This document shows, in pieces, positions 4,261-61,743 of a DNA stretch of 64,000 bases (its first letter is position 1; each line of letters starts with the position of its first letter). Under the pieces are notes generated by a model. That model was not told the origin of the DNA. It saw nothing but the letters and a program-made list of their open reading frames with translations, and did no database searches. The stretch is from a virus. The translations under genes were made by a program, and so were the position numbers. The DNA is taken from positions 37,401 through 101,400 of IMG/VR virus record IMGVR_UViG_3300012005_000003, one strand, 5' to 3'.

Positions 4261-4722
4261 ATGATAACAAACTTTAAACAATTTAATGAAAATCTGTTGG
4301 TTCCACGCAACCTGGAAGGGCGCAATGAGAAGCTCAAGCAGATTAACATCAAGCTGCTTTCTCAGGAAGTGATAGATGATAATTTAGAACTTGATGAGTC
4401 ATTCATGGACATAGATCCTAAATTCGTGAAACTGAAAAAAATAAATGGCACTGTTACATTAACAGGAAATCATTGGACCGAAATTCCTGAATGGTTAAAA
4501 GATGTGAAAATAAGTGGAATTTTTGATTGTTCAGATAATAAGTTAACAACTTTAAAAAATTGTCCTCAGGATATAGGAGGAAGTTTTTGGTGTGCGTTCA
4601 ACAAATTAACATCTCTTGAAGGATGTCCTAAAATATTAAAAAAATCTATCCATTGTTTTGACAATAAAGTTAAATTAAAACTTCCAGATTATGTTGATTT
4701 AAGAGGTAATATTTACAATTAA
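4261..4722 (+). CDS. LRR paralog 1 with capsid-targeting-like leader (3 FxCxxN repeats)
   Basis: MITNFKQFNENLLVPRN start; 22-aa repeats GGxFxCxxNxLTSLEGCP; close paralog of 49939, 50420 C-terminus, 59855 and 61216. Confidence 0.85.
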   Translation: MITNFKQFNENLLVPRNLEGRNEKLKQINIKLLSQEVIDDNLELDESFMDIDPKFVKLKKINGTVTLTGNHWTEIPEWLKDVKISGIFDCSDNKLTTLKNCPQDIGGSFWCAFNKLTSLEGCPKILKKSIHCFDNKVKLKLPDYVDLRGNIYN

Positions 4723-4725
4723 AAT

Positions 4726-5448
4726 TTAATCTTCATCTGAAGATTCTCCGTTTTCCATTTCTTCTTCACTCTGAACTGGTTCTATGAAATCTCCTTGCTC
4801 TCTTTGTAACATCTCGGCTTTATCAGAAGCGTCTTCTTTCTCTTGTTGTCTTTTAATATTTCTATCTTTGACAAATTCATCCAACATATTATTCATTTCT
4901 TTCATGTTCAAGATGTTAGTCTTGTCTTGTTCTGTTACATCTTCAGGAGTCATGATGGCCATGAACATCTCTTTCATAGATCTGTAGTTATTCTCTATTT
5001 CCTTAAATTTTATAGATAGAGATTTTATATTATCTCGCATATCCTTCTGCAGATTTCCTACAACTTCTATCATACGAGCACTATCATCACCATTATCGAG
5101 TTTAGTCATTCCTGATACGTATAATCTTTTGGATTGTTCAACCATGAATTTCAAATATGCATAACCTTCGATGTCTTCTTCCATCTTATCGATCACCAAT
5201 TGGTTTTTCAATGCCTCTTCACCCAGATGCATCTTCACTACTTCGACTATCATAGATCTTGATTTTCCTATGTATTTTTCAAGATCACTTTCGTAATCGT
5301 AAACTTGAACATTGTCGCCCAATCCTGGTATATCATCAGCAGTAGGAAAAAACTCTTTAGGATCAGTTTTCACTGAATTTATGACTAGTTCATAGTCGTC
5401 CATGAGATCTTTTTTCTTCTTTTGGTTTTCTGTTGGTTCTTTTGGCAT
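4726..5448 (-). CDS. Possible terminase small subunit (gp16-like)
   Basis: Helical protein; DSARMIEVVGNLQKDM resembles the T4 gp16 SPRHMEVFATLM segment; ATATATA box upstream. Confidence 0.45.
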   Translation of the reverse strand: MPKEPTENQKKKKDLMDDYELVINSVKTDPKEFFPTADDIPGLGDNVQVYDYESDLEKYIGKSRSMIVEVVKMHLGEEALKNQLVIDKMEEDIEGYAYLKFMVEQSKRLYVSGMTKLDNGDDSARMIEVVGNLQKDMRDNIKSLSIKFKEIENNYRSMKEMFMAIMTPEDVTEQDKTNILNMKEMNNMLDEFVKDRNIKRQQEKEDASDKAEMLQREQGDFIEPVQSEEEMENGESSDED

Positions 5449-5470
5449 ATTGCTATATATCTAGTTTGAT

Positions 5471-5800
5471 CTAAACAGGCTGATAGTCGAAAGAAGAGTC
5501 CATCTTCTTGAGCATTGCAAATTTCTTGATTAGTTCTTTCTTTATGTTTGGAAGTTTCAATCTTTCAATAAAAGACAAATCCCATTTGATATTACCGTTA
5601 TCGCCAAATCTACAAATAGATTTTCCAAAAGTTCTTCCTGGATCTTTTTCTTCCGAATCATAAACTGTTACAGATCCAAGGTGTCCAACACACTTCATGC
5701 CGTGTTTCGATAGCTCTGAAGCGAGTTCTATCAATCTCTGAGCCATGAAATCATTTCTTCTTTCATTGATAAATGTTTCATAGGTCTTAATAGTTTTCAT
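5471..5800 (-). CDS. Leader-tagged putative internal virion protein
   Basis: N-terminus MKTIKTYETFINE (compare T4 CTS MKTYQEFIAE). Confidence 0.75.
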   Translation of the reverse strand: MKTIKTYETFINERRNDFMAQRLIELASELSKHGMKCVGHLGSVTVYDSEEKDPGRTFGKSICRFGDNGNIKWDLSFIERLKLPNIKKELIKKFAMLKKMDSSFDYQPV

Positions 5801-5804
5801 ATGC

Positions 5805-5814
5805 TTATATATAA
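5805..5814. promoter_or_regulatory. Palindromic TTATATATAA late-promoter-like box between two divergent leader-tagged genes
   Basis: Lies in the 33-bp gap between divergent starts at 5800 (-) and 5834 (+). Confidence 0.55.
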
Positions 5815-7806: not shown

Positions 7807-8352
7807 ATGAAACATATGAAACATATTAAACTTTTTGAAACATTCATTGCTGAATCCAAACAGTCATTTCCTGATATCCAGAAAGAGAAGAAGGAACTTG
7901 ACAAATTAGGAAGATATGAGATATTTGTTGGTAAACCTGAACAAGTGTCTAATTTTTTGAAAGAATGTGATCCTGACATGTTGAAATGGATCCAGGAGAT
8001 GTCTGATACACAAGTCAAAGTATATCTTTCGCCGAACAATAGATATCTTATGAGACCTATCGGAATCTTATCTTTAGAAAAAGGTTTATTGAAAGTTGAT
8101 TTAAATAAAGCAAGATTGTTAGAATCCATCAACTGGATGAGCATGGAAATACCCGCAGAATCAGAATGGGAAATAACAGATGGTAAATTCAAAGATTCCA
8201 AAGTGTATAAAATCAAGAAATTTGATAATTCTTACATTATACCTTCAGATAGAGTAAATTGGTTTAAAGAACATATTGGAACAACAGTTAGATTCAAATA
8301 CGATCCATCTGAAATGTTGATGACCAATATTCATATCAGTAAAAGAGCTTAA
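7807..8352 (+). CDS. Leader-tagged putative internal virion protein
   Basis: MKHMKHIKLFETFIAE; AATATATAC at 7795-7803. Confidence 0.8.
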   Translation: MKHMKHIKLFETFIAESKQSFPDIQKEKKELDKLGRYEIFVGKPEQVSNFLKECDPDMLKWIQEMSDTQVKVYLSPNNRYLMRPIGILSLEKGLLKVDLNKARLLESINWMSMEIPAESEWEITDGKFKDSKVYKIKKFDNSYIIPSDRVNWFKEHIGTTVRFKYDPSEMLMTNIHISKRA

Positions 8353-37078: not shown

Positions 37079-38761
37079 TTACACTAAGTAAGATAAAGGA
37101 TCAGTTACTTTAATTGTTAAGTATTGTTTTTGAGGGAAGAATCCGCCTTCAACAACAGCGTAACGAGAACGTAAAAATAATCTTGGTGCTCTAGTTGCTT
37201 CAGAAATTAAACTGATTGATTGTGCCATTAAGTAAGGTACGAATACGATACCTGGTTGATCAACTTCGTTACGACGGCCTAACACAACACGATTATCATC
37301 ATACTTCATGTATGGATCAACGTAAACTTGAATACCTGCAATTTGTCCTACTGGATATAATTGACCGTTAGTGTTCATGTTTCCTTTAACAGGACTGATT
37401 GTGTAAGCAGCAGCATCAGATAAAGCAGCAGCGATACGGCCGTTAGTTACTAAATAAGTAGCAGGCCCGATTCGTCCTTCAGAAGCAATAAAGTTGCTAC
37501 CAGCAAATATTTTAGAACATAACTTACGCTGTATAGCATGAGTAGTTTCACCTTGAGGTCCACCAGCAGCTAAGTAAGCAGTATCTAAGTCGAAAATTGT
37601 ACCTGTGCCCATAACTGGAGCAGCAGCTCTGTTTAATTCTCCCATTTGGAAAATCTTCTCAACAATTTGACGAGAGATAGTTTGAGATAATTCATTAACT
37701 AAAACTGATTCTAATTTCTGAACGATGTCGATTCCTGTTTGAGATTTGATATCTTCCATCTCTGTACGCTTTAAAGCAGAAGAGATTTCGATAGTACCAA
37801 CAGTTACACGCTTAGTAGAAACGTTTGGAGCGATAATTCCTGGGTAGTTCATATCATCTTCTTGACGAGACATTGGGTAAGACTTGTTCCAGTTAGAAAC
37901 GAAACCTGGGATATGGTCTTCCATAGCTGAAATTAATTCAACAGATGCTGTAGTAAAAGCACCAGTAGGAACAGCAGTTGTAGCAACACCGTTAACTGTT
38001 GTTGGAGCAGCAAAACCTAAATTAATAACATCAGAAACTACTTCTGTTATTGTAAATGTGTTTTTACTACCATCGAATGTATAACTACCAGCAGAAGCTG
38101 TGTTATTCTGACGATATGATCTTAACATTGGCAAACCATCGATACGAGAGTATCCTAAGAACTCTAATACATGTGTTTTAGAAACTGAAGGCTCAATTAA
38201 AGCATCAGCTAAAGTAATACCAGTTATTGAAACAAATATACGTTTGTTTAATCCACCTTGAGATAATACAGCGCCAGCATTAGCAATTAAAGCATTTAAG
38301 AAAGTTTTAGCAGTTGCCATGTCAGCAGTACCGAAACGAATTTTGAACACTTGAGGTCTTTCGTCTGTTCCATCTGGAGTATCATCGTAACGATAGTCTA
38401 CGTAGAATAAGTCTATAACTGGTCCTGGAGTTGGTTTAACAGGAACTAAGTCTAAACCGATTGTTTGTGCAGCAACTTTCATTGAAGCAGCTAACAATTG
38501 TTGACCTAAGTCACCTGAACCTACTGCACCACTTGCTGTATAAGCAGCACCTGGGATTGTACCTGCGGTTGGAGAAATAACTGCGCCCATACCTGAAACG
38601 TTAGCGTTGTTCGCGTAAGCGATGTTCTCATTTAATTGGTGATATTCTGCATACTCAGCCATCCATGACTTTTTGTAACTGTCAGTTCCAACACCTAAGC
38701 TCTCGATAATCGGAGCCCATTTTTTTTCGATTTTTTTCTTGTCGATTTGAACGTGGTTCAT
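37079..38761 (-). CDS. gp23: Major capsid protein (T4 gp23-like)
   Basis: KKWAPIIE, DLVPVKPTPGP, LVNELSQTISRQI, VYVDPY, PGIVFVPY, RSRYAV; probable cleavage site QLNE/N. Confidence 0.92.
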   Translation of the reverse strand: MNHVQIDKKKIEKKWAPIIESLGVGTDSYKKSWMAEYAEYHQLNENIAYANNANVSGMGAVISPTAGTIPGAAYTASGAVGSGDLGQQLLAASMKVAAQTIGLDLVPVKPTPGPVIDLFYVDYRYDDTPDGTDERPQVFKIRFGTADMATAKTFLNALIANAGAVLSQGGLNKRIFVSITGITLADALIEPSVSKTHVLEFLGYSRIDGLPMLRSYRQNNTASAGSYTFDGSKNTFTITEVVSDVINLGFAAPTTVNGVATTAVPTGAFTTASVELISAMEDHIPGFVSNWNKSYPMSRQEDDMNYPGIIAPNVSTKRVTVGTIEISSALKRTEMEDIKSQTGIDIVQKLESVLVNELSQTISRQIVEKIFQMGELNRAAAPVMGTGTIFDLDTAYLAAGGPQGETTHAIQRKLCSKIFAGSNFIASEGRIGPATYLVTNGRIAAALSDAAAYTISPVKGNMNTNGQLYPVGQIAGIQVYVDPYMKYDDNRVVLGRRNEVDQPGIVFVPYLMAQSISLISEATRAPRLFLRSRYAVVEGGFFPQKQYLTIKVTDPLSYLV

Positions 38762-38846: not shown

Positions 38847-41078
38847 TTACTTTAGCCTATCGAACTTGTTTAACATTGATTGGATTTGGCTTTCGTTTAA
38901 TAGATCATTGTCTATTAAATTAGTTCCTAATACTTTCTTTGATTCAACAATCGGTTCAGCTGTGTTGAACTTACGTGTTGCCCAGAAATGTTCCATTTTG
39001 TCTTGAGTGTCTATAGAATAGAACTTAGATTGTGCGATAACAGATCTTTGTGCATTTACGTCCAACGATTCCCATAACGGTTTAATGCTAGATGGGATGT
39101 TTTTGATCAATCTTTCTTCTTGAGTTTCAGCTTCAACAGATAATGCTTTGTGCATGATTTTCAAAACGTCAGTCTTAGAGAAGTATCCGTTGCTTTCTTT
39201 TATTGCAACAATAACTGTTTCTTGTTCTTCGTTTGATAACTGTTTGAAGTTTTTGATCTCGCTTTCGTTTAAGAAAGTGAAGAAATGTGGCTCTTCTTGT
39301 TTGGAGGCTTCTCGTTTTTTAGTCTCCAGGATAAGCGCCTGTATGCTTTCGGTCAAATTTTTAGATTCGATAACTTCTTCCTCTGCAGGAACAAGTTCAT
39401 TCTCTTGTTTTAATACTTGTTCACCTGAGTTTGTTAACTCGATAGTGATACCTTCTTCTCCGATGTTGATAACTTTACCAACTTCAGTAGTTCCGTCGAT
39501 CTTAACTACCATGTCCATGCAGATTCCACATATTGGCTCGATAGCTGCAACAACTGGAGCTTCTTCACCTTCTTTAGAAACAACTGGCTCAGTTGCAGGT
39601 TCAGAGATGATTTTAGTTAAAGTAACTTCTGCTTCAGGAGTTTCTTCCTCTTCTTCATCTTCCTCAGTTGATGGATTCTCAACAGTGATGTCCATAAATT
39701 CGATGATAGATTGGATAGGCTCTGTAGCAGTAGACTCGTTTACGTTCTTGCTGTTTAAACCTTCTACTAATTTCACATTGTAACCGATAGTTTTATCTAA
39801 AGATTCTGCAATGTATTTAGTGTAGTCGATGTTGTCTCCAACGTTCTCAGCGATGTACTGAGCATAAAGAACTGTACTGTCTAAGTTCTCAGCTAAATAG
39901 TTAGAGAAGTCGATAGAGTTCTTTGTGTTTTCAGCAACATATTCAGAGAATTCGATAGATGCGTTCAAGTTCTCAGCTAAATAGTTAGAGAAGTCGATAG
40001 ATCCTTTTAAGTTCTCAGCGATATATTCGCCGTAAGAGATTGCCTTATCAACGCTCTCTGCTAAGTAGTTTTGATACTTGATAGAGCTTTTTAAGTTCTC
40101 TGCGATGTAGTCGCCAAAAGAGATTGCATTATCTACATTCTCAGCAACGTACTTCACGTAGCCGATTGCCTTTTCTAAATCCTTAGAAAGGTTTTCGTTC
40201 TTTTCAACTAACATTGTAGTTGTTTCCTTCAGAGCTTTATTCTCGATGAAGAATGTGCTCATGTTTTCTGCTAGGTAGTCTAGGTAACTTGATACCTTCT
40301 CCTGTGCATGCAATAATGATTCGTACTGAGCTATCATGTTGGTCATCTTATCGAAATCAGGCATTGCGCCAGTTTTTGAAGCTGTTTGTTTGATTTCAGC
40401 TGCTAAGTTTTCGATAGTTTCCTTGATGTACTCTGAGTACTCAGTCAACTGCATTTTAGTTACTAAGTCTTTGTTGTCGTTCATGTGAAACATTTCATTT
40501 ATTTTTGATTCGTCTACCACTTCGATAATGCGGAAGTTACTGTTGTTGCTAAAGCCTAAAGATTCGTTCATAGATTTTGATTCCATGCGGGCTTCAGCAA
40601 ATCCAGGATCTGCCACTATGTCATAAGTGAATAGTTTTTTTATTGTTACTTCCTTGTTGGATTCAGTAACACCAGCAGCTCTTGAAGAAACGAAGATAGG
40701 ATCTCCGTCATCTACCAATGCACGTGCTTCCTTACCGAAGTAAGTGGTTAATAATTTGATATCACCGTATACAGCATTCTTCTCTTTCACATAATATGCA
40801 TTAAGCAATTTGTGAGAGATACGGCTCATGCTTGTATCGAAATTTTCTGGATGGTCGAATTCTCCATAAACAACACCTGGCTTGGTGTTGATTCTGTACA
40901 TCATCTCTTCTAAATGTGGAAGGAATTTCTCAGCTTTGTAGATTCTGTTGTTTCGGTTCTCTTCGTTGAACAAGGTCAATAACCCTGTCATCGTGTAGTT
41001 CTTTTGGCCTTGAGGATTGACAGACTCGTTCAGCTTCATAGCTTCTAGTGTGTTGTCAAAAATTAATACTTGCTTCAT
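38847..41078 (-). CDS. gp21: Prohead protease (gp21-like) fused to a scaffold/core domain with 14-aa repeats
   Basis: NRNNRIY, GEFDHP, ISH, VSSRAAG, TYDIVADPGF; then ~9 Y(L/I/V)AE(N/S) repeats and an acidic region. Confidence 0.9.
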   Translation of the reverse strand: MKQVLIFDNTLEAMKLNESVNPQGQKNYTMTGLLTLFNEENRNNRIYKAEKFLPHLEEMMYRINTKPGVVYGEFDHPENFDTSMSRISHKLLNAYYVKEKNAVYGDIKLLTTYFGKEARALVDDGDPIFVSSRAAGVTESNKEVTIKKLFTYDIVADPGFAEARMESKSMNESLGFSNNSNFRIIEVVDESKINEMFHMNDNKDLVTKMQLTEYSEYIKETIENLAAEIKQTASKTGAMPDFDKMTNMIAQYESLLHAQEKVSSYLDYLAENMSTFFIENKALKETTTMLVEKNENLSKDLEKAIGYVKYVAENVDNAISFGDYIAENLKSSIKYQNYLAESVDKAISYGEYIAENLKGSIDFSNYLAENLNASIEFSEYVAENTKNSIDFSNYLAENLDSTVLYAQYIAENVGDNIDYTKYIAESLDKTIGYNVKLVEGLNSKNVNESTATEPIQSIIEFMDITVENPSTEEDEEEEETPEAEVTLTKIISEPATEPVVSKEGEEAPVVAAIEPICGICMDMVVKIDGTTEVGKVINIGEEGITIELTNSGEQVLKQENELVPAEEEVIESKNLTESIQALILETKKREASKQEEPHFFTFLNESEIKNFKQLSNEEQETVIVAIKESNGYFSKTDVLKIMHKALSVEAETQEERLIKNIPSSIKPLWESLDVNAQRSVIAQSKFYSIDTQDKMEHFWATRKFNTAEPIVESKKVLGTNLIDNDLLNESQIQSMLNKFDRLK

Positions 41079-43138: not shown

Positions 43139-43171
43139 CTCTAAAGAATTCTAAACAAAAAAAAACAAAAT

Positions 43172-43759: not shown

Positions 43760-43776
43760 TTTTATATTATAAAAAT

Positions 43777-43807
43777 AAAAAGCCTCAAATTAATTTGAGG
43801 CTTTTTT
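43777..43807. terminator. Bidirectional terminator between convergent cargo arrays
   Basis: AAAAAGCCTCAAATTAATTTGAGGCTTTTTT. Confidence 0.85.
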
Positions 43808-43809
43808 AA

Positions 43810-44127: not shown

Positions 44128-44159
44128 GATTTATATTTTTTTTTTGGTAAATACTTATT

Positions 44160-44599: not shown

Positions 44600-44602
44600 A
44601 GT

Positions 44603-44921
44603 CTATATATTATTATTATTTTTGTTGATAAGAGCATTAAGCTCTTTCATTATTGCATCATGTTCTGTCCTGCATTCCTTGGAATTATAAGGATTATATC
44701 CTCCGTTTCCCCATTCGGACCAGCATATCAGCAGTATTTCACCTTTTTCTAATTATCAGCAGCCATTACAAGCATTGATGCATCAGGTGATGTATATTTG
44801 CTATCATCTTCAGGATCCCAATTTGGTGATATTTATCAATGAATTTTCTGATCCTGCTTGCAAGATCTTTCATATATTCAATATTGTTTTCATTTAAGAA
44901 CTCTTTAAAATTGTTTATCAT
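44603..44921 (-). pseudogene. Leader-tagged gene with two apparent frameshifts (not in ORF track)
   Basis: MINNFKEFLNENNIEY..., then PNWDPEDDSKYTSPDASMLVMAAD, then LEKGEILLICWSEWGNGGYNPY in different frames. Confidence 0.6.
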
Positions 44922-44923
44922 AT

Positions 44924-45373
44924 TTATTTAATTCCTTTCCAAACTAAAATTGTAGTCATTCCTAAATTGTTAACAGCATTAGCTCTGTGAGTTCCATCGA
45001 TTATACAGAAATCTCTATCTATGATTATAGGAGGATATGTTCCAGTCTTTTCTATCTTTACTTCTATAGCTTCTACATGATCTTCGTCCTTGTACCATTC
45101 ATCCAGATCTAGTTTATCGATATCAATTTCTGTCAATTTATATCTTTTATATTTTTCAATCCTGTCTCCAAGATCTCCTTCATGAAAATCATCATAGTTC
45201 CTGTGTAAGCTTTGGGCATAATTGTAAATATCTGATTCATCAACAATATCTCCAATTTTAGCATTCTTCCAGCATAGATTCTGGTATGTTTCAGATCTTG
45301 ATTCGTTCATAACAAATTTCTGAATATTTGATATATTCTTATGAGTATTTTTAAATTGTTCGAAACTATACAT
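44924..45373 (-). CDS. ParB/sulfiredoxin-like protein with a leader-like N-terminus
   Basis: YPPIIIDRDFCIIDGTHRANA; MYSFEQF...VMNE. Confidence 0.75.
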   Translation of the reverse strand: MYSFEQFKNTHKNISNIQKFVMNESRSETYQNLCWKNAKIGDIVDESDIYNYAQSLHRNYDDFHEGDLGDRIEKYKRYKLTEIDIDKLDLDEWYKDEDHVEAIEVKIEKTGTYPPIIIDRDFCIIDGTHRANAVNNLGMTTILVWKGIK

Positions 45374-45378
45374 TGTTT

Positions 45379-45774
45379 TTATTTAATTTTATATTCATCA
45401 AACAACTGATAGACTTCTTTTGCTATGGTTTTAAACCAATTAACTTGTACATGATCTTCATCTTCTTCATCAGCATCAGCTTTCATCAAATCGAAAATAT
45501 AAGATAAATTTATGATTTTTTCAAAATCGTAATCTATGTTAAAGCTAGAAGGCAGACCGCTGATCCAATCAGCGAAACCTTTTATGTTTTTTTCTTTGTG
45601 ATATTCACTTTTAAAACAGTCAAACAAAAATTGTAATCTATCTTTATCTGATTTTAAAACAATGTTATAATTATCTGCATCGATAGCATTCAAAATATAG
45701 ATATCCAGAGCTTCTTTGTTTGTTGTCGATGTTGATTCATTGACGAATTGTTGAAATGTTTTGATATTTTTCAT
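45379..45774 (-). CDS. Leader-tagged putative internal virion protein
   Basis: MKNIKTFQQFVNE. Confidence 0.8.
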   Translation of the reverse strand: MKNIKTFQQFVNESTSTTNKEALDIYILNAIDADNYNIVLKSDKDRLQFLFDCFKSEYHKEKNIKGFADWISGLPSSFNIDYDFEKIINLSYIFDLMKADADEEDEDHVQVNWFKTIAKEVYQLFDEYKIK

Positions 45775-46211
45775 TAATCTTTTTTAGTTTTTTCTTCTGT
45801 TTGTGGATTTGGATCTTCCATTCTGCCAAGATCCAAGATCGATTTCTTCATCTTGTAAAGAGTTTCATTTTCAGGAGTGCTCTTCATGATCTCAGTGAAT
45901 GCCATTTTTGTAAAATCTATACATTGTTTGATATCATCAAATTCGAATCTTTTGCTCAGATTGATATTTTTAGGTTTTGCAGTAAATGAAATATACCATT
46001 GGTTGCTATCGTCTTTGGACCAATGATTACCAGAAACATTATTAATAGATCCAATGTTTATATCATTAGCTAATATTTCATAACCTCTCAGACTATTACG
46101 AGCCACAACAGAAGCCAATCCAGTTGATGCTGAATATCTCTTGGTTTTGAATTTGTATAAATCTTTCTCTTTCTTTACTTCGTTCATGAAACCATCAAAA
46201 TTCTTTATCAT
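45774..46211 (-). CDS. Leader-tagged putative internal virion protein
   Basis: MIKNFDGFMNE. Confidence 0.75.
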   Translation of the reverse strand: MIKNFDGFMNEVKKEKDLYKFKTKRYSASTGLASVVARNSLRGYEILANDINIGSINNVSGNHWSKDDSNQWYISFTAKPKNINLSKRFEFDDIKQCIDFTKMAFTEIMKSTPENETLYKMKKSILDLGRMEDPNPQTEEKTKKD

Positions 46212-46213
46212 GG

Positions 46214-46606
46214 TTAGAATATAACTTTTATTTTCTTTGTTTTGAAGTCTATATCGATCTCCTGTGGTTCTACAGTGCCACCGAATTCAAAATTGTTGAT
46301 CTCGGATTCAAACTGCCAGTTTGAATCAGCTTCAAATTCAAGTTCTTTTACATCATCTTTATCTTCTTCAGGAGTTGTTACTGTGTAATCACCGTAAACC
46401 TTTAATATTTCTACATCGAATGAAGATATGCCATGTTTTGTTTCATATATGTTCGTTTTCCATTCTATGGTCATGTCTAACGGATCAACATATTGTTCTC
46501 CTTCTACAGGTTTATTGTAAAGATTAACAAATCTATAGCCAAGCTTAGTTTTGAAATTATCAGTTGTGTTAGATTCATTTAAGAATTTATTGAAATTTTT
46601 GATCAT
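46214..46606 (-). CDS. Leader-tagged putative internal virion protein
   Basis: MIKNFNKFLNE; AATATATAG upstream. Confidence 0.8.
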   Translation of the reverse strand: MIKNFNKFLNESNTTDNFKTKLGYRFVNLYNKPVEGEQYVDPLDMTIEWKTNIYETKHGISSFDVEILKVYGDYTVTTPEEDKDDVKELEFEADSNWQFESEINNFEFGGTVEPQEIDIDFKTKKIKVIF

Positions 46607-47187: not shown

Positions 47188-47310
47188 ATATGATTTAAAA
47201 TTTGTATACATTATACAAATTTCTTCTTAAGCAAAGCTTGAACTATTGTTCTACTTTAGCGCTTAAAGGTCTAATCCTAGACATGCTTAATTTTATTTCT
47301 TAAACCGAAA
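47188..47310 (-). ncRNA. Probable TnpB omega-RNA (right-end) region
   Basis: Non-coding stretch overlapping the tnpB 3' end, with hairpin AAATTTGTATA-ATG-TATACAAATTT (47199-47223); boundaries are guesses. Confidence 0.45.
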
Positions 47311-48398
47311 TTCTTGATATTGTTTGCAGCATTGATATCTCTATCATGTTCAATACCACATTTACAAGTCCATTCTCGATCCTTCAATGTCAGTTCTTTA
47401 TTGATTATACCACAATTTGAACATGTTTTTGATGATGGTTCGAATCTACCTATGAATATTAGATTTTTTCCATACCATTCAGTTTTATATTCAAGCTGTC
47501 TTCTGAACTCACTCCAGCTAACATCCTGAATGGCTTTAGCTAAACAATGATTTTTCATCATCCCATCAACATTCAAGTCTTCTAGAACTATCGTGTTATA
47601 CTTCTTGGTTATCGAAGTTGTTATTTTATGCAGATTATCTACACGTTGGTTTTTTATTTTCTCGTGTATTTTAGCAACTTTAAGTTTCTGTTTTTTATAC
47701 CCATTGCTTTGTTCTTTTTGTCCTTTCTTAAATCGTCTAGACAAAGTCCTTTGTTCAATTCTTAATTGCTTTTGTGCCTTTTTATACCATCTAGGATTCT
47801 CAAACTTGGTTCCATCAGAAAGTATAGCTAAATCTTTAATTCCTAGATCTATACCTATGGTTGTATTTTCGTCTATTTCAGGTTTAGTTGGACCATCTAT
47901 TCCAGTATCAACCTGGATAGATATAAAATATTTACCAGTTGTTGATTTGCTAACTGTGCAAGTTTTTATAATGCCTTCAAATGTCCTATCGATAATGATA
48001 GGTACCCATTTAAGTTTTGGTATAAATATTTTACTATTTTCTAAATCTATTTTTACATGTTGAGGTAGTTGGAATGATTGTTTAGAGTGTTTGTTTTTAA
48101 ATTTAGGAAATCCTTTGCCTTTGAAGAAAGCTGTATAAGCATTATCCAGATTGTTTAAGGACATCTGCAATGCCTGACTAGGACTGTCTTTCAACCATGA
48201 ACATTGTTCTGTTTGTTTAAGCTCTGTCACTTGTTTGTTTAAATCAAAACAGCTCAAATTAACTCTAGCACTAGTGTATGCTGAAATCTTAGTTTCTAAA
48301 CCTAGATTATAGACGTACCTGACAGAACCAAATATACATTTCAGTTGCTCTGTCTGGAGCAAATTAGGATATATTCTATATTTAAAGGCTTTTATCAT
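47277..48398 (-). mobile_element. tnpB: TnpB (IS200/IS605 family, IS1341-like, no adjacent TnpA)
   Basis: KAFKYRIYP HTH, GFPKFK, GIDLG, VLEDL, SSKTCSNCG, CKCG, HDRDINAA; RuvC D-E-D triad intact. Confidence 0.92.
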
Positions 48399-49938: not shown

Positions 49939-50406
49939 TTAATTATTAAATTCACCTTTAAGTTTCACATAATCAGGAAGTTTTAATTCAACTTCATTCT
50001 CGCCACAATTAAGATCTCCTCCTATATTTTTAGAGCACCCATCCAAAGATATTAATTGATTAACACAACAATTAAAATTTTTTCCTACACTATGTGGACT
50101 ATTTTCCAATGACATTAATTGATTATGATTGCAATCAAAATCTCCTGTTATTTCAATATCTTTAAACCATACAGGAAATGTTGTCCAATCTTCTCCATCT
50201 AAATAAACATTACCTTTCACTTTCTTAAGCTTGACAAACTTAGCATCAACATCCATGAATGATGAATCAAGATTTAAAGGTCCTTCTATCACTTCCTGAG
50301 AAAGTAACTTGATGTTCATTTGCATTCTTTTTACTTTCCTCTCTTCAATGTTGCGAGGAACTAACAGGTTTTCATTTACGAATTGTTTAAAATTTGTTAT
50401 GATCAT
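49939..50406 (-). CDS. LRR paralog 2 (3 repeats) with leader
   Basis: MIITNFKQFVNENLLVPRN. Confidence 0.85.
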   Translation of the reverse strand: MIITNFKQFVNENLLVPRNIEERKVKRMQMNIKLLSQEVIEGPLNLDSSFMDVDAKFVKLKKVKGNVYLDGEDWTTFPVWFKDIEITGDFDCNHNQLMSLENSPHSVGKNFNCCVNQLISLDGCSKNIGGDLNCGENEVELKLPDYVKLKGEFNN

Positions 50407-50419
50407 GTTCTATATTTTT

Positions 50420-52261
50420 TTAATTTTTAAATTGACCTTTCAATTTAACATAATTAGGAAGTTCTAATTCGCCTTTATTATTTTGGCAATAAAAATCTCC
50501 TCCTACATTTTCAGGACAACCTTCCAAAGTTGTTAATTCATTACTTGTACAACTAAAATTTCCTCCTATGTATTCAGGACATCCTTGCAAAGATGTTAAT
50601 TTGTTATTATAACATTGAAAACTTCCATTTATATTATCTGGACTTCCTTCCAGAGATGTTAAATCATTATATGAACAACCAAAATCTCCTCCTATCTTCC
50701 GTGGACAGTTTTTCAATGTAGTTAATTTATTATTATAACAATTAAAATCGCCATTTACTTCAACATCTTTCAGCCATGCAGGTATTTCAGTCCATTGTTC
50801 TCCTGTTAACCAAACATCTCCATTAACTTTTTTCAGTTTTACGAACTTTGGATCTATGTCCATGAAGGATTCATCAAGCTTAAGTTCTCCATCTATCACT
50901 TCCTGAGAAAGCAGCTTGATGTTAATCTGCTTGAGCTTCTCCTTGCGCCCTTCCAGGTTACGAGGAACTAACAGGTTTTCATTTACGAATTGTTTAAAGT
51001 TTGTTATGATTTTACTTTCTCCTAATTTATTTTGTGCTATATCATGTTTGATATCTTTAACGATATCGTTTATCTCTTTTGTTGCATTTTTATCTCCTGA
51101 TAAAATGTTCTTCATTATAGCATTAAACTCTTTAGCTGGTTTAGAAGATAAAACAGCTATAATATTATTTTTGTATTCTTCGTTTCTGCTATCGTATATA
51201 GCATCATTCAATCTCTGCCAGAATCCAGGCCCTAGTCTCAGAGCCATTCTTTCAGAAGCTAAAGAATCTGCAGCTTTTATAACTTTTGTTCTTTCTTCAC
51301 TTGATAATGAATCATGTGACATCAATAATTCTGTAACTCCTTTTGCCAATTCGTGAATCAGGAATGGAAACGATGTTGCAGTTACAATGATTTTTGGAGT
51401 ATCATCCTGAAGATCCAATTTTATTTTACCAACACTTGATTCTTCTCCTCCGAAGTTATCAGGAACTACCCAGTATCCGTATTCAGACATCACGCTTAAT
51501 ATAGAATACATATCTACTAAACCTGGATGAATCTTTTTAAGTCCATCAGAAATCAAATGATATGCATATGTAGTTTTTACTGCAGAACCATGAATAAGAC
51601 TGTTGATGAATTTTCTCTTTTCCACTTCAAGCTCCAAACCAGTTAAATCATCTGCTATTTCTTCTGCATCTTCATCGTCTATGTCAGATAATGAAATCTC
51701 ACCATGTTTTATCATCTTGGCTTCGAAATCTACATCATCTTCTGATATATTAAATTCTTTACAGATAAGATCTATTGCAAGTTTTTCCAAATCTTCTATA
51801 TGATCAGCTTCTATCTCGACAACTTCATTGTAAACTTTCATCAACAACATCTGAAGATCCATCATATTTTCTATATCAATATGTTTGTCGTGTACATATG
51901 ACTGTAACTTATCAACTATCTCTTTGAATCTCTCATCAGCTATAATCTTATCAAAATCTTCATTTGGATAAGCTGGGTTTTTTGCCAAACTGTGAGTTTT
52001 AGATTTCAAAGATTTGTCTATATCAGAGTGTCTCTTGTGAGACATAGCTTCGTTTAAAACTTCTGATATAAGCTTGTATGCTTTTGGCTTTGGAGATTCT
52101 TTTGGATCTCTTTTTCCAGGTTTGAATGGATTGATCGAAGGCTTAGTTGCAGGTTCTGCAATCTTTGGTTCACTTGGAGCAATCAAAGGTTGAGGCTCTT
52201 TTGTGTTCTTTTCGTTTAATCTCTTTTTAAAGTTTGTAAAATCTGATAATTTTTTAAACAT
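50420..52261 (-). CDS. Leader-tagged helical protein fused to LRR paralog 3 (5 repeats, ~50420..51013)
   Basis: MFKKLSDFTNFKKRLNE; LIHELAKGVTE; internal KIITNFKQFVNENLLVPRN starts the LRR module. Confidence 0.8.
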   Translation of the reverse strand: MFKKLSDFTNFKKRLNEKNTKEPQPLIAPSEPKIAEPATKPSINPFKPGKRDPKESPKPKAYKLISEVLNEAMSHKRHSDIDKSLKSKTHSLAKNPAYPNEDFDKIIADERFKEIVDKLQSYVHDKHIDIENMMDLQMLLMKVYNEVVEIEADHIEDLEKLAIDLICKEFNISEDDVDFEAKMIKHGEISLSDIDDEDAEEIADDLTGLELEVEKRKFINSLIHGSAVKTTYAYHLISDGLKKIHPGLVDMYSILSVMSEYGYWVVPDNFGGEESSVGKIKLDLQDDTPKIIVTATSFPFLIHELAKGVTELLMSHDSLSSEERTKVIKAADSLASERMALRLGPGFWQRLNDAIYDSRNEEYKNNIIAVLSSKPAKEFNAIMKNILSGDKNATKEINDIVKDIKHDIAQNKLGESKIITNFKQFVNENLLVPRNLEGRKEKLKQINIKLLSQEVIDGELKLDESFMDIDPKFVKLKKVNGDVWLTGEQWTEIPAWLKDVEVNGDFNCYNNKLTTLKNCPRKIGGDFGCSYNDLTSLEGSPDNINGSFQCYNNKLTSLQGCPEYIGGNFSCTSNELTTLEGCPENVGGDFYCQNNKGELELPNYVKLKGQFKN

Positions 52262-52333: not shown

Positions 52334-52945
52334 TTAGTCTTTTTTGGTTTTATCTGATATATCAGCTGGATCCGTTCCTTCAGGAACGTTATCAACTATA
52401 TCAACGAAAGTTCGGTTGTAAATAGCCGCTTCCTTTTCAGAATATGAATCCTGTAATGCTTTGATGAAAGCTTTTGGAGTCTTAGGATCTTTGTTTATTT
52501 TTTTATTCCATGAATTACCAATTTCCAAAGTGTAACCGAAATAATTGATCATATCTACTAAAGTTCCTATGACATATTTAGTTCTGCTACCATTTCTGCT
52601 AGATTCCACTTTAACTATGAAAGATTTATCCATTTTTGCTTCTAACACTACTTCAATTCCTTCTTTGACATTTTCCTTCTTAGCTTGTTTCAAAGCATCA
52701 TCAAATATGTTTTTTTCAGGATTGATATTTGCAACAAATGCCAACATGCCTACAACTTCTTTCTCGTTGTCATCTGTAGCCTTCATTAAGGCATCGTAAA
52801 GTTCTTTACCAGTCTTGAAAGATCCTGAAACAGTTTCATCTTCTTTCAATCCTAACAATTTGTGCATTTTACCTTGTTTAGGCTTAAATTTATCAGAAAA
52901 GAAGTTTTTCTTTTCATTAACAAAATCTTCAAATCTTTTGATCAT
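52334..52945 (-). CDS. Leader-tagged protein directly downstream of portal
   Basis: MIKRFEDFVNE; AATATATAA upstream. Confidence 0.8.
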   Translation of the reverse strand: MIKRFEDFVNEKKNFFSDKFKPKQGKMHKLLGLKEDETVSGSFKTGKELYDALMKATDDNEKEVVGMLAFVANINPEKNIFDDALKQAKKENVKEGIEVVLEAKMDKSFIVKVESSRNGSRTKYVIGTLVDMINYFGYTLEIGNSWNKKINKDPKTPKAFIKALQDSYSEKEAAIYNRTFVDIVDNVPEGTDPADISDKTKKD

Positions 52946-52979: not shown

Positions 52980-54632
52980 TTAAGAAGCTGGTTGTTCAGG
53001 TTGTTCAGGTTGTTCTGCTGGAGCTTCTGCAGCTGGAGCTTCTGCAACCGGTTCTTCACCAGCTGGTTCTGCAGCTATTTCCTCGGTTGGAACTTGTCCA
53101 AGTTTTCTCATTTTCGCTTTTTTGTTCTCTTCTATCTCAATATCAGTCAGTTTTAAAATCCTCTTGATCAAGTAATCTATATCGAAGTATGACTCTGGAG
53201 CTTCTTTTGGAATATTGGTTAATAGATTTGCAAGAATGTTTGCTCTCTTTTCCAAGATACCAATCTCTTTCCACTCTTCGAACATGTTGTTCTGATTGAA
53301 ACGAACATTGATAGAATTTATAAAAGAAGCATCGTTCTTCAATTCTGGAAATTCTAATAAAGTCTGTATGATCAAAGGTTTCACAATGATCTCTTTGAAC
53401 ATAGCTCTCAATCTGGATACAAAATTAGTAAATCTCATTTCATCACGAGTCACCTCTGATGCATCAGAGAATATGTTACCACCACCAGTTGAGCCATCAA
53501 GACGTGATGCCGGAACTTTTGAACTTCTCTTCAGAGCTCCCATGAACCAGTTCAACATGGATTCTTCGTTAAGATCTGCCGTATCTGGTTTTATCATTTC
53601 TATACTAGGAGTTCCAGATTCAGATTCAGGAAACCACCATTGTTTACTGAAAGGTATATGAGCTGAACCATTGATTGATACTGTTCCCATTTCATCATTA
53701 AATGATACTTCATCTTTGTAATCAGCTATCAACTGTCCTATCTCTTCCTCTGCTCTGGTTTTTGATAAACCTCCAACAGGGATGATGAACTTCTGATACA
53801 TTGTAGCATTCATGATATTGAACATGATACGAGACTGTTCTATCAATTTCAACTGATTGTAAGGCCGTATTAAATTCTCAACATAACTGGTTTCGAAAAT
53901 ACCAATGCTGTTGTTTCCAGAATATGCCAGATATATGATAGAAGAATCCAACATGATTTTTCTATTTTGTATATCGTTAGGATGTTGTATCCATACTTTC
54001 TTTCCTGACATAGGTTCTACCGCAGGAACCAGTGTTGCAGGATCCAACATTTTTATATCTATGATCACCTTCTGTCTGTCATCGTATACAATCTCGAAAG
54101 CCAAGTAACCATCGACAATGAATTGTCTGAAATAGTTCCATGCTGTGATACCATCGTTAAATCCTAGTGTATTGTACACTTGTTCGAATATCTGATAATA
54201 ACGGTCTTTTACTTTCTTTGCTACATTCTCTTTGAGATCTACAGGGAAACAGAATTTTGATCCATCGTCATAATCTATTGCATCATCACAAACTATTGTG
54301 ATATACTCACTGATCTCACCTTTGACAGAATACTGTCTCAATATCTTCTGTTTTTCAGTATATGCAAAATTCAAAAATGCAACAGATTTCTTTTCTAGAA
54401 CTTTAGAAACAGCTCTTCTTGAAAAAATATCATACATGCTACCAGATGTAGCAAGAGTATTAGGATCTTCATTTATTCCAGTTGCACTAGAATTCTTGAG
54501 GATCATATCATCGTATTTCATACCCCAGTTCCATGAGGAAAGATCTCTCAATACTTTATTGTAGAAAGATTTATTGCCTATGTTACTAGGTGAGTACTGT
54601 ATCTGACGATATGGGTTTGCTGATCCTGCCAT
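52980..54632 (-). CDS. gp20: Portal protein (T4 gp20-like)
   Basis: FRQFIVDGYL, RPYNQLKLIEQS, VGGLSKTRAEE, KVPASRL, EVTRDEMRFTNFVSRLR. Confidence 0.92.
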   Translation of the reverse strand: MAGSANPYRQIQYSPSNIGNKSFYNKVLRDLSSWNWGMKYDDMILKNSSATGINEDPNTLATSGSMYDIFSRRAVSKVLEKKSVAFLNFAYTEKQKILRQYSVKGEISEYITIVCDDAIDYDDGSKFCFPVDLKENVAKKVKDRYYQIFEQVYNTLGFNDGITAWNYFRQFIVDGYLAFEIVYDDRQKVIIDIKMLDPATLVPAVEPMSGKKVWIQHPNDIQNRKIMLDSSIIYLAYSGNNSIGIFETSYVENLIRPYNQLKLIEQSRIMFNIMNATMYQKFIIPVGGLSKTRAEEEIGQLIADYKDEVSFNDEMGTVSINGSAHIPFSKQWWFPESESGTPSIEMIKPDTADLNEESMLNWFMGALKRSSKVPASRLDGSTGGGNIFSDASEVTRDEMRFTNFVSRLRAMFKEIIVKPLIIQTLLEFPELKNDASFINSINVRFNQNNMFEEWKEIGILEKRANILANLLTNIPKEAPESYFDIDYLIKRILKLTDIEIEENKKAKMRKLGQVPTEEIAAEPAGEEPVAEAPAAEAPAEQPEQPEQPAS

Positions 54633-55953: not shown

Positions 55954-56457
55954 TTACTCTTTGATTCTGTTTAAGTGTTTCTCAGTGATGATGTAGAATT
56001 CAAGATCTCTTGCTTTGCAATATTCTTTAGCTCTCTCCCATTTGTATACATTTTTTGTATATGTCTTGATCTGGTATTCGAACGATTCCAGTTTTTTAGA
56101 ATTTGCATTCTTTGGCAACACTGGCGGCTTCGTTTCGTTCAGAGGTTTAACTTCCAACACCATGCGTTTGAATTTGTCTGGGTTGCCGTCTATACACATT
56201 TCAACATAGAAATCAGGATAATACCTGTGAGGTTTACCCATCATGTCGTTATATTTGATCTCTATGAATTCAGCACCCCATCTTGCAACTTTTCCTGTAC
56301 CTGATAAATAATCCAACCATATCATGATCCTTTTTTCCCAGGATGATCTGAAATACAAACCACCTTCATTGTTCAGTTTGATCACCTTGTTTTTGTTCTG
56401 TGGTGTATACAGTCCTTGCTGGTAGTTACCTCTCTGTGTCGGTTTACTATTAAGCAT
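55954..56457 (-). CDS. gp4: Head completion nuclease (gp4-like)
   Basis: FRSSWE, RWGAE, HRYYPDF, LEVKP, KWERA, IITE. Confidence 0.88.
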   Translation of the reverse strand: MLNSKPTQRGNYQQGLYTPQNKNKVIKLNNEGGLYFRSSWEKRIMIWLDYLSGTGKVARWGAEFIEIKYNDMMGKPHRYYPDFYVEMCIDGNPDKFKRMVLEVKPLNETKPPVLPKNANSKKLESFEYQIKTYTKNVYKWERAKEYCKARDLEFYIITEKHLNRIKE

Positions 56458-57121
56458 TTAATACATAATGGAATTTCTGTTTGTCTGCTGTAGAATAAGT
56501 GACGTCTTTTATATCTTCTATAGTGATGACGTCTTTAAATTTCTTTAAATATTTTTCACCAGTTCCTTTCAAGCAATAAGCCAATGTGATATGAGGAACA
56601 TACGCATCGTAATCTGATTTATAAGGAAACTCTTTCAATTCTTCATGAAGAGCTATAAGTTCTTCAGAAGGTATGACTGCGATCTTGACAACATCGAATT
56701 TCTCATTATCGAACATGCTGATTTCTGAAATCTGAACTGTGAAAGGTTCATACTGCATGATCACTTTTTCTACATCTTCTGGAGTTGCTGCATCTTCATC
56801 ATCTTGTTCAGAAACCAAACCGTACAAAGCTGTTATATGGACATCGTCCTGTTTTCCAAATCTGTTCGGGTTTTCAGGATCGTTGTATAAATCTTCATCA
56901 GATATCTCGTCTTGCATCTTTCTGATTATATCTATAGAGTCGCCATTTGTGACATCCAACATCACACATCCGTAACTGTATTTTGCTTTCTCCTCTTTTC
57001 CTTCGTTTAGAAAAATATGATCAGCAATACCAATACGACCTTTTTTATGAATAGTGTTCGAAGCTTCTAAAATTTTAGAAGCTAAAGATCTTTGTTTTAG
57101 AAACCCTTTGAAATCTAACAT
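56450..57121 (-). CDS. 2H phosphoesterase, T4 57B/Acb1-like, with a leader-like N-terminal extension
   Basis: Two HxT motifs (VHITALYG, PHITLAY); YSYGCVM; MLDFKGF...IFLNE. Confidence 0.8.
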   Translation of the reverse strand: MLDFKGFLKQRSLASKILEASNTIHKKGRIGIADHIFLNEGKEEKAKYSYGCVMLDVTNGDSIDIIRKMQDEISDEDLYNDPENPNRFGKQDDVHITALYGLVSEQDDEDAATPEDVEKVIMQYEPFTVQISEISMFDNEKFDVVKIAVIPSEELIALHEELKEFPYKSDYDAYVPHITLAYCLKGTGEKYLKKFKDVITIEDIKDVTYSTADKQKFHYVLNA

Positions 57122-59769: not shown

Positions 59770-59854
59770 TTGATATATTTATTTTTTGTACCTATTCAGG
59801 CTTTTGTGATAGTATATATTTAAAAAATCTAACCCTTTTTTGCTAATTCTGATT

Positions 59855-60379
59855 TTAATTTATAAATTTACCTTTTAAATCAACATAATCTGGAAGTTCC
59901 AATTTATATTTGTTTCCATAACAATAAAAATCTCCTCCTATATTTTCAGGACATCCTTCCAGAGATGCTAAATTGTTATAATAACAATCAAAATCACCTC
60001 CTATATTTTCAGGACATCCTTCCAGGGATATTAATCTATTTCTAGCGCACTTAAAACTTCCTCCTATTTCTTTTGGGCAGTTTTTCAGTGTTGTCAATTT
60101 ATTACCTGAACAACTAAAATTACCATTTACTTCAACATCTTTCAGCCACTCAGGAATTTCAGTCCATTCTAATGACGATAACCGAATATTACCATTCACC
60201 TTTTTAAGTTTTACGAACTTTGCATCTATGTCCATGAAGGATTCATTTAGCTCTAAATCTCCATCTATCACTTCCTGAGAAAGCAATCTGATGTTCATCT
60301 GTTTACGTTTTACATGTCTTTCTGCAAGGTTGCGTGGAACCAACAGGTTTTCATTGAATTGTTTAAAGTTTGTTATCAT
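59855..60379 (-). CDS. LRR paralog 4 (4 repeats) with leader
   Basis: MITNFKQFNENLLVPRN; TATATAGATCATG start context. Confidence 0.85.
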   Translation of the reverse strand: MITNFKQFNENLLVPRNLAERHVKRKQMNIRLLSQEVIDGDLELNESFMDIDAKFVKLKKVNGNIRLSSLEWTEIPEWLKDVEVNGNFSCSGNKLTTLKNCPKEIGGSFKCARNRLISLEGCPENIGGDFDCYYNNLASLEGCPENIGGDFYCYGNKYKLELPDYVDLKGKFIN

Positions 60380-60391
60380 GATCTATATATT

Positions 60392-61213
60392 CTATGCAGG
60401 ATCTGTGTTCAGATGATCTGTTGATAAATTATCAGGATTTCCGTATTTGATATAAGTATCCCATTGGACTCTCTTGTTTGCCAAAAAGAAATGCGTGCCA
60501 AATACTCCTGGAGCTGTAATATTTTCTTTTCCTGATAATAATGCCTGCATTGAAGCCAAAGATCCATTGTCACCTAGATCCATTGCTGGAAAAACACTCT
60601 TCACTTCGAAAGAATATTTGATAGCTATTTTGTTATCAGAAGACATGTTACTTTCTCTTGGAATAGTCATTTCTATACCTTCAGGTTGCTGCATGATGCC
60701 TTTGATACTTATTCCTCTGTGGTCAAATTCTAGGTATTTGTAAACCTGTAAAATAGACTGTATCTTAGATATGGCAACAAGAACATCCCTTTCAGAAGAT
60801 AATTGTATTTCTAAACTAAAAGAACATGTGATTGGAATTGGAACCACCTTAGAATAAACTTTCAATATCTCACTCTCAGATTCGAGATTAGATCTGATCC
60901 ATACATTAGGATTTGCCATTTCACCAAAATTTGCAGCCACAGATTCCAAATAAATATGTCCTCTTGGTATGATATCAGTGTTAAGTTCAACTCTTTTATC
61001 AACAATATCATCAACAAATGAATCCATTAAAAACCTTTCATCTCCTGATATGCTATAATAGAAAGGGACTGTAACGAGACGATTTTCTTTCTTGAAACGA
61101 TTGATCCACCATCTCCTATCTTGTAGTTTGGCGATCACTGCGATTATGAGATCTCTATAATAGACATCGTCATAGTTCATTAAATGATCGATAGATAAAT
61201 TTTCTTGGCCCAT
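60392..61213 (-). CDS. gp15: Tail terminator / sheath stabiliser (gp15-like)
   Basis: VTVPFYY, IPRGHIYL, PIPITCSFSLEI...DVLVAISKI. Confidence 0.7.
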   Translation of the reverse strand: MGQENLSIDHLMNYDDVYYRDLIIAVIAKLQDRRWWINRFKKENRLVTVPFYYSISGDERFLMDSFVDDIVDKRVELNTDIIPRGHIYLESVAANFGEMANPNVWIRSNLESESEILKVYSKVVPIPITCSFSLEIQLSSERDVLVAISKIQSILQVYKYLEFDHRGISIKGIMQQPEGIEMTIPRESNMSSDNKIAIKYSFEVKSVFPAMDLGDNGSLASMQALLSGKENITAPGVFGTHFFLANKRVQWDTYIKYGNPDNLSTDHLNTDPA

Positions 61214-61215
61214 TT

Positions 61216-61743
61216 TTATTTATTTTTAAATTTACCTTTTAATTTTACATAATCAGGAAGTTCTAATTTAACTTTATTATCACTACACCAAAAATCTCCT
61301 CCTATATTTTCAGGACAACCTTTCAGAGATGTTAATTTGTTCCATGAACAATTAAAACTTCCTGCTATATTTTTAGGACATCCTTCCAGAGATGTTAATT
61401 CATTATTATAACACCTAAACTCTCCTCCTATCTTCTGTGGACAGTTTTTCAATATTGTTAATTTATTGTCTGAACATAAAAAACTTCCCAATATTTTCAC
61501 ATCTTTCAACCATTCAGGAATTTCTGTCCATTGGTTTCCTGTTAATGTAACATCGCCATTAACTTTCTTGAGCTTGACGAACTTAGCATCGATATCCATG
61601 AAAGATTCATCAATCTTCAAATCTCCATCAATCACTTCCTGAGAAAGTAATCTGATGTTCATTTGTTTGAGTTTCTCCTTGCGGCCTTCTATATTTCTAG
61701 GGACTAGTAAATTCTCATTTACGAACGTCTTAAAATCTTTCAT
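61216..61743 (-). CDS. LRR paralog 5 (4 repeats) with leader
   Basis: MKDFKTFVNENLLVPRN; TATATAGATCATG start context. Confidence 0.85.
   Translation of the reverse strand: MKDFKTFVNENLLVPRNIEGRKEKLKQMNIRLLSQEVIDGDLKIDESFMDIDAKFVKLKKVNGDVTLTGNQWTEIPEWLKDVKILGSFLCSDNKLTILKNCPQKIGGEFRCYNNELTSLEGCPKNIAGSFNCSWNKLTSLKGCPENIGGDFWCSDNKVKLELPDYVKLKGKFKNK

Follow-up and report, generated by a model that had tools for sequence, protein, structure and literature searches.

The question raised by this locus is why a phage should keep several copies of one small leucine-rich repeat (LRR) gene that agree in their frame and differ along their strands. The locus lies in a stretch of 64,000 nucleotides (the window), which corresponds to bases 37401-101400 of a 101.4-kb linear virus contig in IMG/VR (IMGVR_UViG_3300012005_000003) and has a GC content of ~30%. 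An earlier description made from the letters alone, called here the sequence-only reading, had noted five dispersed LRR paralogs and suggested a diversifying repertoire of injected binders similar to the variable lymphocyte receptors (VLRs) of lampreys. By analyzing these proteins and their relatives, we find that they belong to a large, phage-specific family of LRR proteins that resemble Listeria internalin J (InlJ) and carry a hypervariable face. As a whole explanation we propose a multigene family of binders with a variable face, which recombine and are tagged by a leader for delivery in the phage head, and to this combined proposal we give about an even chance. The copies in the window, delimited by their open reading frames (ORFs) and by cutting the proteins in register (for the third, by register), are:

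4261..4722, plus strand: LRR paralog 1, 153 amino acids, with a leader (4261-4290), a helix, two degenerate turns, three 21-amino acid units and a C-terminal strand.
49939..50406, minus strand: LRR paralog 2, 155 amino acids, three units, the most diverged copy; leader at 50371-50406.
50420..50977, minus strand: LRR module of five units, the C-terminal part of a 613-amino acid fusion ORF.
59855..60379, minus strand: LRR paralog 4, 174 amino acids, four units; leader at 60350-60379 and a ATATATAG box at 60383-60390.
61216..61743, minus strand: LRR paralog 5, 175 amino acids, four units; leader at 61714-61743 and a ATATATAG box at 61747-61754.

All five are found where the sequence-only reading had placed them. 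Four are intact ORFs of the lengths it gave, while the third, a real copy at 50420-51013, is not standalone and makes up the C-terminal ~196 amino acids of the 613-amino acid ORF (50420-52261, minus strand). A sixth copy is located upstream of the window on the same contig (G000:C1:24769-25284). The resemblance between the copies is far beyond chance, since nucleotide repeats link them with 60-78% identity over 300-390 nt and protein comparison gives E-values of 1e-50 to 1e-84. The common N-terminal block and C-terminal end were seen in every one of the five, and in a 40-member alignment the N-terminal columns are mostly at least 90% conserved. What had been taken as an N-cap is indeed shared but really consists of three parts: a leader of ~10 residues, a helix, and two degenerate LRR turns with the same variable stripe as the units. 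Repeat counts of 3, 3, 5, 4 and 4 were borne out when the proteins were cut in register; the repeat length, given before as 22 amino acids, has to be corrected to 21 (63 nt), and the lengths in the family rise in steps of 21 (132/153/174/195/216/237). The unit reads I-x-G-x-F-x-C-x-x-N-x-L-T-S-L-E-G-C-P-x-x, with a core conservation of 86% for I, 88% for F, 96% for C, 96% for N and 73% for L (417 units of exactly 21 amino acids from 106 proteins), and the proteins end 7-8 residues past the last unit.

Structure prediction, which the sequence-only reading had proposed, returned an LRR fold. The AlphaFold2 (AF2) model, for which a 40-sequence alignment was the input, has a predicted local distance difference test (pLDDT) value of 92.1 and a predicted template modelling (pTM) score of 0.84, and shows a disordered leader (residues 1-10), a helix (residues 18-33) and then short paired strands every 21 residues. 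The top 50 structural matches of an exhaustive aligner are LRR proteins (Z 9.3-11.9), the top Foldseek matches are mostly LRR, and the family profile compared with the PDB finds InlJ as the best match among solved structures (2.4e-9), along with SspH2 (3.5e-6) and IpaH7.8 (3e-5). Based on the model we are confident that the fold is an LRR solenoid of the InlJ-like, 21-residue cysteine-ladder type; the ladder and the distinction between 21- and 22-residue repeats have been described (PMC5915736). Each protein would be one short solenoid, built from an N-terminal helix, two degenerate turns, one to six cysteine-ladder units and a closing strand. None of the five window proteins reached the cut-off of a Pfam LRR family (the best was LRRNT, 17.3 bits against 25.8) and PF12799 is present in some relatives; this miss reflects the coverage of the Pfam models, not the fold. 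A profile search of 1.84 billion representatives matched 21,028 clusters, mostly over the repeat region only and in long proteins, and therefore the repeat type is common and poorly annotated.

InlJ (PDB 3bz5) shares with the phage proteins the 21-residue period and the cysteine that replaces the second core leucine (L-x-x-L-x-C-x-x-N). Unlike InlJ, the phage proteins are phage-encoded and tiny (3-7 turns) and lack a signal peptide, a cell-wall anchor and an Ig-like inter-repeat domain, whilst their units contain an extra residue before the strand (I-x-G-x-F) and a second conserved Cys-Pro in the loop. By inspection, their N-terminus is a charged leader and a helix with no hydrophobic signal sequence. 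Another comparison is with the type III effectors IpaH, SspH and YopM (profile 3.5e-6 to 3e-5, structural Z ~10), delivered proteins in which a short bacterial-type (LPX) LRR with a helical N-cap serves target recognition and which also form paralog families with differing LRR faces. Here the repeat length and core differ and the route would be the phage head instead of a secretion system; the phage proteins end right after the LRR, without the NEL ubiquitin-ligase domain. Looking after the LRR, no NEL domain was found in the window proteins, and only the fusion has another domain, which is at its N-terminus.

The differences between the copies are concentrated on the strands. Among the 417 units, positions 3, 5, 7 and 8 reach 3.1-3.5 bits compared with 0.35-0.76 for F/C/N, and this alternating stripe also marks both degenerate turns at the N-terminus and the closing strand. 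No two of the 19 eight-residue strand motifs in the window are identical, and every motif quoted in the sequence-only reading was found. That reading had placed the variable positions on the concave face, and they indeed occupy only alternating strand positions and are not uniformly spread; according to LRR rules and the alternation pattern, these residues would be exposed on that face. Their composition is biased, with Ser 21%, Tyr 16%, Asn 15.5% and Asp 13% (together 66%) and with Trp at 12% of unit position 5, whereas, relative to the phage proteome, K, E, L, I, M and P are 3- to 50-fold scarcer, and for most of them the deficit also holds against a neutral expectation from base composition. 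An alphabet of Ser, Tyr, Asn, Asp and Trp is typical of the paratopes of antibodies, VLRs and synthetic binders. We infer that each paralog is most likely a binder with its own specificity.

A different explanation is that the variable positions are unconstrained and that the paralogs are redundant filler or structural proteins without individual specificities. To weigh it we turn to the ratio of nonsynonymous to synonymous rates (dN/dS, omega) in 12 DNA copies, six of this contig and six of related contigs. By Nei-Gojobori counting, omega is 0.04 in the N-terminus (dS ~2) and 0.25-0.30 in the repeat scaffold; at the four variable positions it is 1.43 (1.05-1.97) relative to the local dS in canonical units, and 0.99 when all turns are counted. 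Maximum likelihood (ML) under GY94 gives 0.045, 0.17 and 0.72 for the N-terminus, scaffold and variable sites, respectively. The scaffold is under strong purifying selection; the variable sites change 4- to 16-fold faster than the others, at a rate close to neutral. The raised dN/dS that the sequence-only reading looked for is seen as a contrast, with 0.7-1.4 at the variable sites far above the scaffold (0.17-0.3) and the N-terminus (0.04), but an omega above 1 at these sites is not established, as it runs from 0.72 (ML) to 1.43 (counting), and saturated synonymous sites allow no verdict on positive selection. dS is at least 0.5 in every pair, and the highest identity between any two of 92 family proteins is 84%; with no pair above this value and with synonymous sites saturated, the paralogs must be old. 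An omega near 1 (0.72-1.43) is what neutrality predicts, and the age of the paralogs and the single substitutions between near-identical alleles, which avoid the variable sites (see below), also fit unconstrained positions. Against this stand Lys at 1%, where 6.5-9% is expected in a 30% GC genome, Trp at 12% of one position compared with ~1%, a 3.5-fold enrichment of Tyr, and the retention, by several distant phage lineages, of dozens of intact copies per genome. The bias in the alphabet speaks against plain relaxation, and we consider unconstrained filler very unlikely.

How the variants of these putative binders arise can be seen by comparing protein clusters of >90% identical alleles from metagenomes. 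Seven allele pairs in these clusters are separated by one residue only, in each case outside the variable sites. In several pairs with more differences, all of them lie in one contiguous C-terminal block: in one pair 18 of 18 differences are within the last 42 residues, in another 14 of 14 come after residue 153 together with one extra unit, and in a variant of paralog 1 all five are in the last eight residues, as a swapped tail. The incoming segments of such mosaic alleles are identical to segments of other family members, and one family protein contains two identical adjacent units. dS is 0.4-0.6 in the 3' repeats and 1.3-2.0 in the 5' part. A GENECONV-like permutation gave p<0.01 in 9 of 66 pairs, with identical tracts of ~50 nt (4261 against 50420, and two adjacent L010 genes), although this test ignores rate heterogeneity and the excess of identical tracts is suggestive only. 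When units were compared, the scaffold of middle units was ~78% identical in nucleotides whether they came from the same gene, the same index or neither, with no signal of positional orthology among middle units and no recent intragenic duplication in the window copies. The diversity stems from ordinary inherited recombination, with exchange of segments between paralogs together with gain or loss of 63-nt units. This fits the shuffling or gene conversion among paralogs that the sequence-only reading had suggested, and the repeat-number polymorphism and mosaic repeats that it expected in relatives are both present in near-identical alleles.

The likeness to lamprey and hagfish VLRs is one of shape only. 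Both have an LRR scaffold with a variable number of modules, and in both the concave face is hypervariable and abounds in aromatic and small polar residues; a hagfish VLR is among the structural matches (Z 9.5). Yet VLRs are assembled somatically from cassettes into an incomplete germline gene, while the phage copies are complete, inherited and old, and they lack the disulfide LRRNT/LRRCT caps and the stalk. A repeat search around the LRR copies gave no partial cassettes, every copy being a complete ORF, so that a VLR-like mechanism falls away. Another option is that a diversity-generating retroelement (DGR) or other programmed mutator writes the variable sites, whose codons are mostly A-rich NNT (AAT, GAT, TAT, AGT) and whose residue set is like DGR output. 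We rejected a DGR origin and regard this option as barely credible: the 101-kb contig, itself a fragment of the genome, has no RVT_1 match and so no reverse transcriptase, nor a near-identical pair of template and variable repeats; scaffold DNA differs between copies by a dS of at least 0.5, so that a single template repeat could not serve all; Trp (TGG) is common at one site; and near-identical alleles show no scatter at the variable sites.

The next question is where putative binders of this kind would act. Many unrelated small genes on the contig begin with nearly identical DNA (repeat search; families D3/D7/D9), which encodes a leader with the motif aromatic-x-x-aromatic-[ILV]-N-E. This motif occurs 25 times in the 101-kb contig, 21 times at most 8 residues from a start codon, once inside the 613-amino acid fusion and three times in a 743-amino acid protease ORF. 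At least 15 more small ORFs of unrelated sequence have the same leader (7807-8352, 22882-23220, 26314-31138, 41694-46606, 52334-52945), several of them in head-to-tail arrays. The leader has the look of a tag for cargo in general, used well beyond the LRR family. In the window copies it spans ~10 residues, and in its pattern P7 and P4 are aromatic, P3 is I/L/V and P1 is Glu. In T4, gp21 cleaves after L/I-x-E, and the key positions of the 10-residue capsid targeting sequence (CTS) are 4, 7, 8 and 10 (PMC9026906, PMC8442874); the key relative positions of the phage leader are the same. The phage encodes a T4-type prohead protease, portal and capsid protein (PHROG 207, Portal_T4 and Gp23), and the features that bear on head delivery are:

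4250..4257, plus strand: ATATATAG box (motif), 3 nt upstream of the start codon of paralog 1, promoter-like and common to head genes.
37079..38761, minus strand: gp23-like major capsid protein (Pfam Gp23, 7.2e-30), with a leader-like Leu-Asn-Glu site near residue 45 (motif).
38847..41078, minus strand: head maturation protease, 743 amino acids, fused to 11 tandem 14-amino acid units (aromatic-x-x-Tyr-[ILV]-Ala-Glu); PHROG 207.
52980..54632, minus strand: T4-type portal protein (Pfam Portal_T4, 6.7e-70), two genes upstream of the fusion ORF.

In the 743-amino acid ORF, located upstream of the capsid gene, residues 1-233 correspond to head maturation proteases (PHROG 207, 1.2e-26). Each of the 11 units in its middle carries a motif shaped like the leader end, a candidate self-cleavage site, and an acidic C-terminal region follows. 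In T4 the protease and scaffold are separate genes. Pfam Peptidase_S77 and a phmmer search of the PDB left this protease undetected, and Peptidase_S77 controls also gave no match. The ATATATAG box was counted 18 times compared with 5.7 expected; it stands before the leader-bearing copies and the protease gene, and boxes closely similar to it stand before the genes for portal and capsid protein. The leader state in 107 family members is canonical in 51 and variant in ~12, and 40 start exactly at the predicted cleavage point; for three of the leaderless copies, examined as DNA, upstream stop codons confirm the start, and they have no ATATATAG box. As a separate observation, an LRR allele with a leader from a relative (P0324, on a 178,602-bp contig) differs from its twin only in the leader's final Glu, which is Val; on the cleavage model this would block processing. 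The CTS-like leader and the phage-encoded head maturation protease lend indirect support to the suggested injection, and leader, protease and box are consistent with late expression, prohead loading and clipping; delivery of the LRR proteins in the virion is plausible and, in our view, probable.

The closest precedent is the set of T4 internal proteins (IPs), namely IPI, IPII and IPIII, and Alt, which have a short N-terminal leader with aromatic P7/P4, I/L/V at P3 and Glu at P1. T-even IPs are a diverse set of anti-defence proteins in which the CTS is the only common part (PMC3012670). The phage described here likewise has T4-type portal, capsid protein and prohead protease and diverse cargo behind a constant tag; for the LRR proteins, packaging and cleavage are predictions from the sequence pattern. 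Unlike the IPs, to which no sequence or fold relation was found, the LRR proteins are one fold multiplied into dozens of paralogs with a variable face and are not uniformly basic.

It is also conceivable that the LRR proteins are cytoplasmic binders or adaptors that are made during infection and never packaged, the leader being a translation-start, regulatory or recombination element. The 40 of 107 members without a leader fit this, as does leader DNA conserved across unrelated genes, which is what a recombination or expression cassette would give, and packaging is a prediction from sequence. On the other hand, the P7/P4/P3/P1 pattern is that of the experimentally mapped T4 CTS and cleavage rule, the scaffold-like tail of the phage's own protease carries the motif 11 times and the capsid protein has it near its N-terminus, the leaderless forms begin exactly at the predicted cut, and the leader is disordered in the model. 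We consider purely cytoplasmic proteins unlikely.

Still another location would be outside the virion, where the LRR proteins, on the tail, the fibres or the surface of the capsid, would serve in receptor binding or adhesion and widen or switch the host range. LRR adhesins such as internalins bind surface ligands, a gp15-like tail gene (PF16724, 24.7 bits, just below the 25-bit cut-off) has a copy on either side, and there is the precedent of an LRR-like protein in a vibriophage tail module, proposed as a host-interaction factor (PMC10945359). External parts are nevertheless quite unlikely in our view, as the proteins are very small (~145-185 amino acids when mature), have no recognisable attachment domain, trimerisation or fibre features, are dispersed among leader-tagged genes and beside the portal instead of in a fibre module, and have a leader that points inward, to the prohead core.

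The third copy deserves separate mention, as it belongs to a fusion ORF with two further parts:

51011..52261, minus strand: N-terminal ~417 amino acids of the fusion, a disordered Pro/Lys-rich start and then a domain (family and structure comparison).
50978..51010, minus strand: internal copy of the leader (motif), a predicted protease site that matches the beginning of paralog 2 but lacks a start codon.

The N-terminal domain (residues 1-417) is normally a standalone protein of ~410-460 amino acids in other large phages, and its family has an invariant H-E-L-x-K-G; its structural matches are weak and zincin-like (Z no higher than 6.1, atlas scores up to 0.86). The internal leader, having been kept, points to fusion of an upstream gene with a leader-tagged LRR gene, whose joint product the phage protease could still cut apart.

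By looking at other genomes we found 1079 relatives, at least 17 of them on one 287-kb contig that also carries window proteins. At the DNA level, ~10 further copies turned up when IMG/VR, JGI metagenomes and a set of 185,579 prokaryote genomes were scanned, none of them in a cellular genome, and a pattern search for the helix-plus-leader architecture had no hit in the 185,579 prokaryote genomes and found it only in phage contigs. Four LRR genes are in tandem in the 735-kb phage LR756501. Literature searches gave no description of such an LRR family in huge phages, and LRR proteins are rarely reported in phages. The cultured Vibrio phage VB_VaC_SRILMA (PP083314.1, 196 kb) encodes a 211-amino acid protein with eight near-identical 21-amino acid units (L016 3947-4582); the units of this single gene vary only at the same strand positions, and it has no leader. 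This protein could be an experimentally tractable relative of the repeat.

The source of the window, as judged from its sequence, is a huge phage of the Mahaphage/Lak-related group with a T4-type head. The nearest relatives of its portal are LR756501-4 and LR745206 (uncultured phages of 634-735 kb, 45-53% identity), followed by Lak megaphages, which places the phage in the 'Mahaphage' group, and the largest Mahaphage members are predicted to infect Bacteroidetes (PMC7162821). The 287-kb contig (287,436 bp) carries identical copies of window proteins, and therefore the true genome is much larger than the 101-kb fragment. Among the other genes in the window are tRNA-Met and a class I aminoacyl-tRNA synthetase of 473 amino acids (31937-33358, minus strand; tRNA-synt_1, 8e-51), far shorter than cellular Val/Ile/Leu enzymes. 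Between the synthetase and capsid genes are two paralogous homing/HNH endonuclease-like genes (DUF7487) of ~600 amino acids (33442-35247 and 35278-36969, minus strand; PHROG 3339 for the first, 1.5e-123), and an IS605-type TnpB with OrfB_IS605 and a Cas12f-like TNB domain (47277-48398, minus strand) is located between portal and protease, amid leader-tagged genes. An RNA-ligase/2H-phosphoesterase-like gene (56450-57121, minus strand; PHROG 755, 1.4e-12) adjoins a gp4-like head-closure gene (55954-56457, minus strand) inside the head module, with a ATATATAG box upstream. A 95-nt repeat (29812-29906 and 30738-30832, 92% identical) contains a long perfect palindrome with an A-rich run behind it, and it resembles a bidirectional terminator or else a site of recombination between cassette genes.

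Taken together, the mechanism that we propose for the leader-tagged binders is as follows. The LRR proteins would be made late and loaded into the prohead core, where the phage protease would clip the leader; the mature proteins would stay in the head until they enter the cell along with the DNA, and there they would bind host proteins, among which defence proteins are the obvious candidates. That the targets belong to host defence is purely inferred. New variants would come from gain or loss of 63-nt units and from segment exchange between paralogs. Several points weigh against this explanation. Expression, packaging, cleavage, ejection and target are all predictions, and the exposure of the variable residues is predicted from LRR rules and alternation. 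The ML omega at the variable sites is below 1 (0.72), and as all comparisons are near synonymous saturation (dS at least 0.5), relaxed constraint is formally possible. The mosaic alleles come from short metagenome contigs and may partly be assembly chimeras. The copies at 4261 and 59855 have a leader one residue shorter, with Phe in place of I/L/V at P3, ~37% of the family has no leader, so packaging is not the sole mode, and the mature proteins, unlike T4 IPs, are not basic throughout (pI 4.9-8.8, a value that is uninformative here). A bolder version would be a germline library of dozens of capsid-preloaded LRR binders, each neutralising a different host immune or surface-exclusion protein at the onset of infection and refreshed by swaps of 63-nt cassettes, with leaderless copies doing the same job later from the cytoplasm; we hold it to be doubtful.

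If the LRR proteins do enter the head and are injected, the panel of protein binders at the disposal of huge phages would be modular and recombining, an enlarged counterpart of the T-even internal-protein arsenal on one designable scaffold. The small and stable cysteine-ladder frames with their natural paratope diversity are a possible source of binder scaffolds, and the family would offer a route, paralog by paralog, to unknown host defence proteins.

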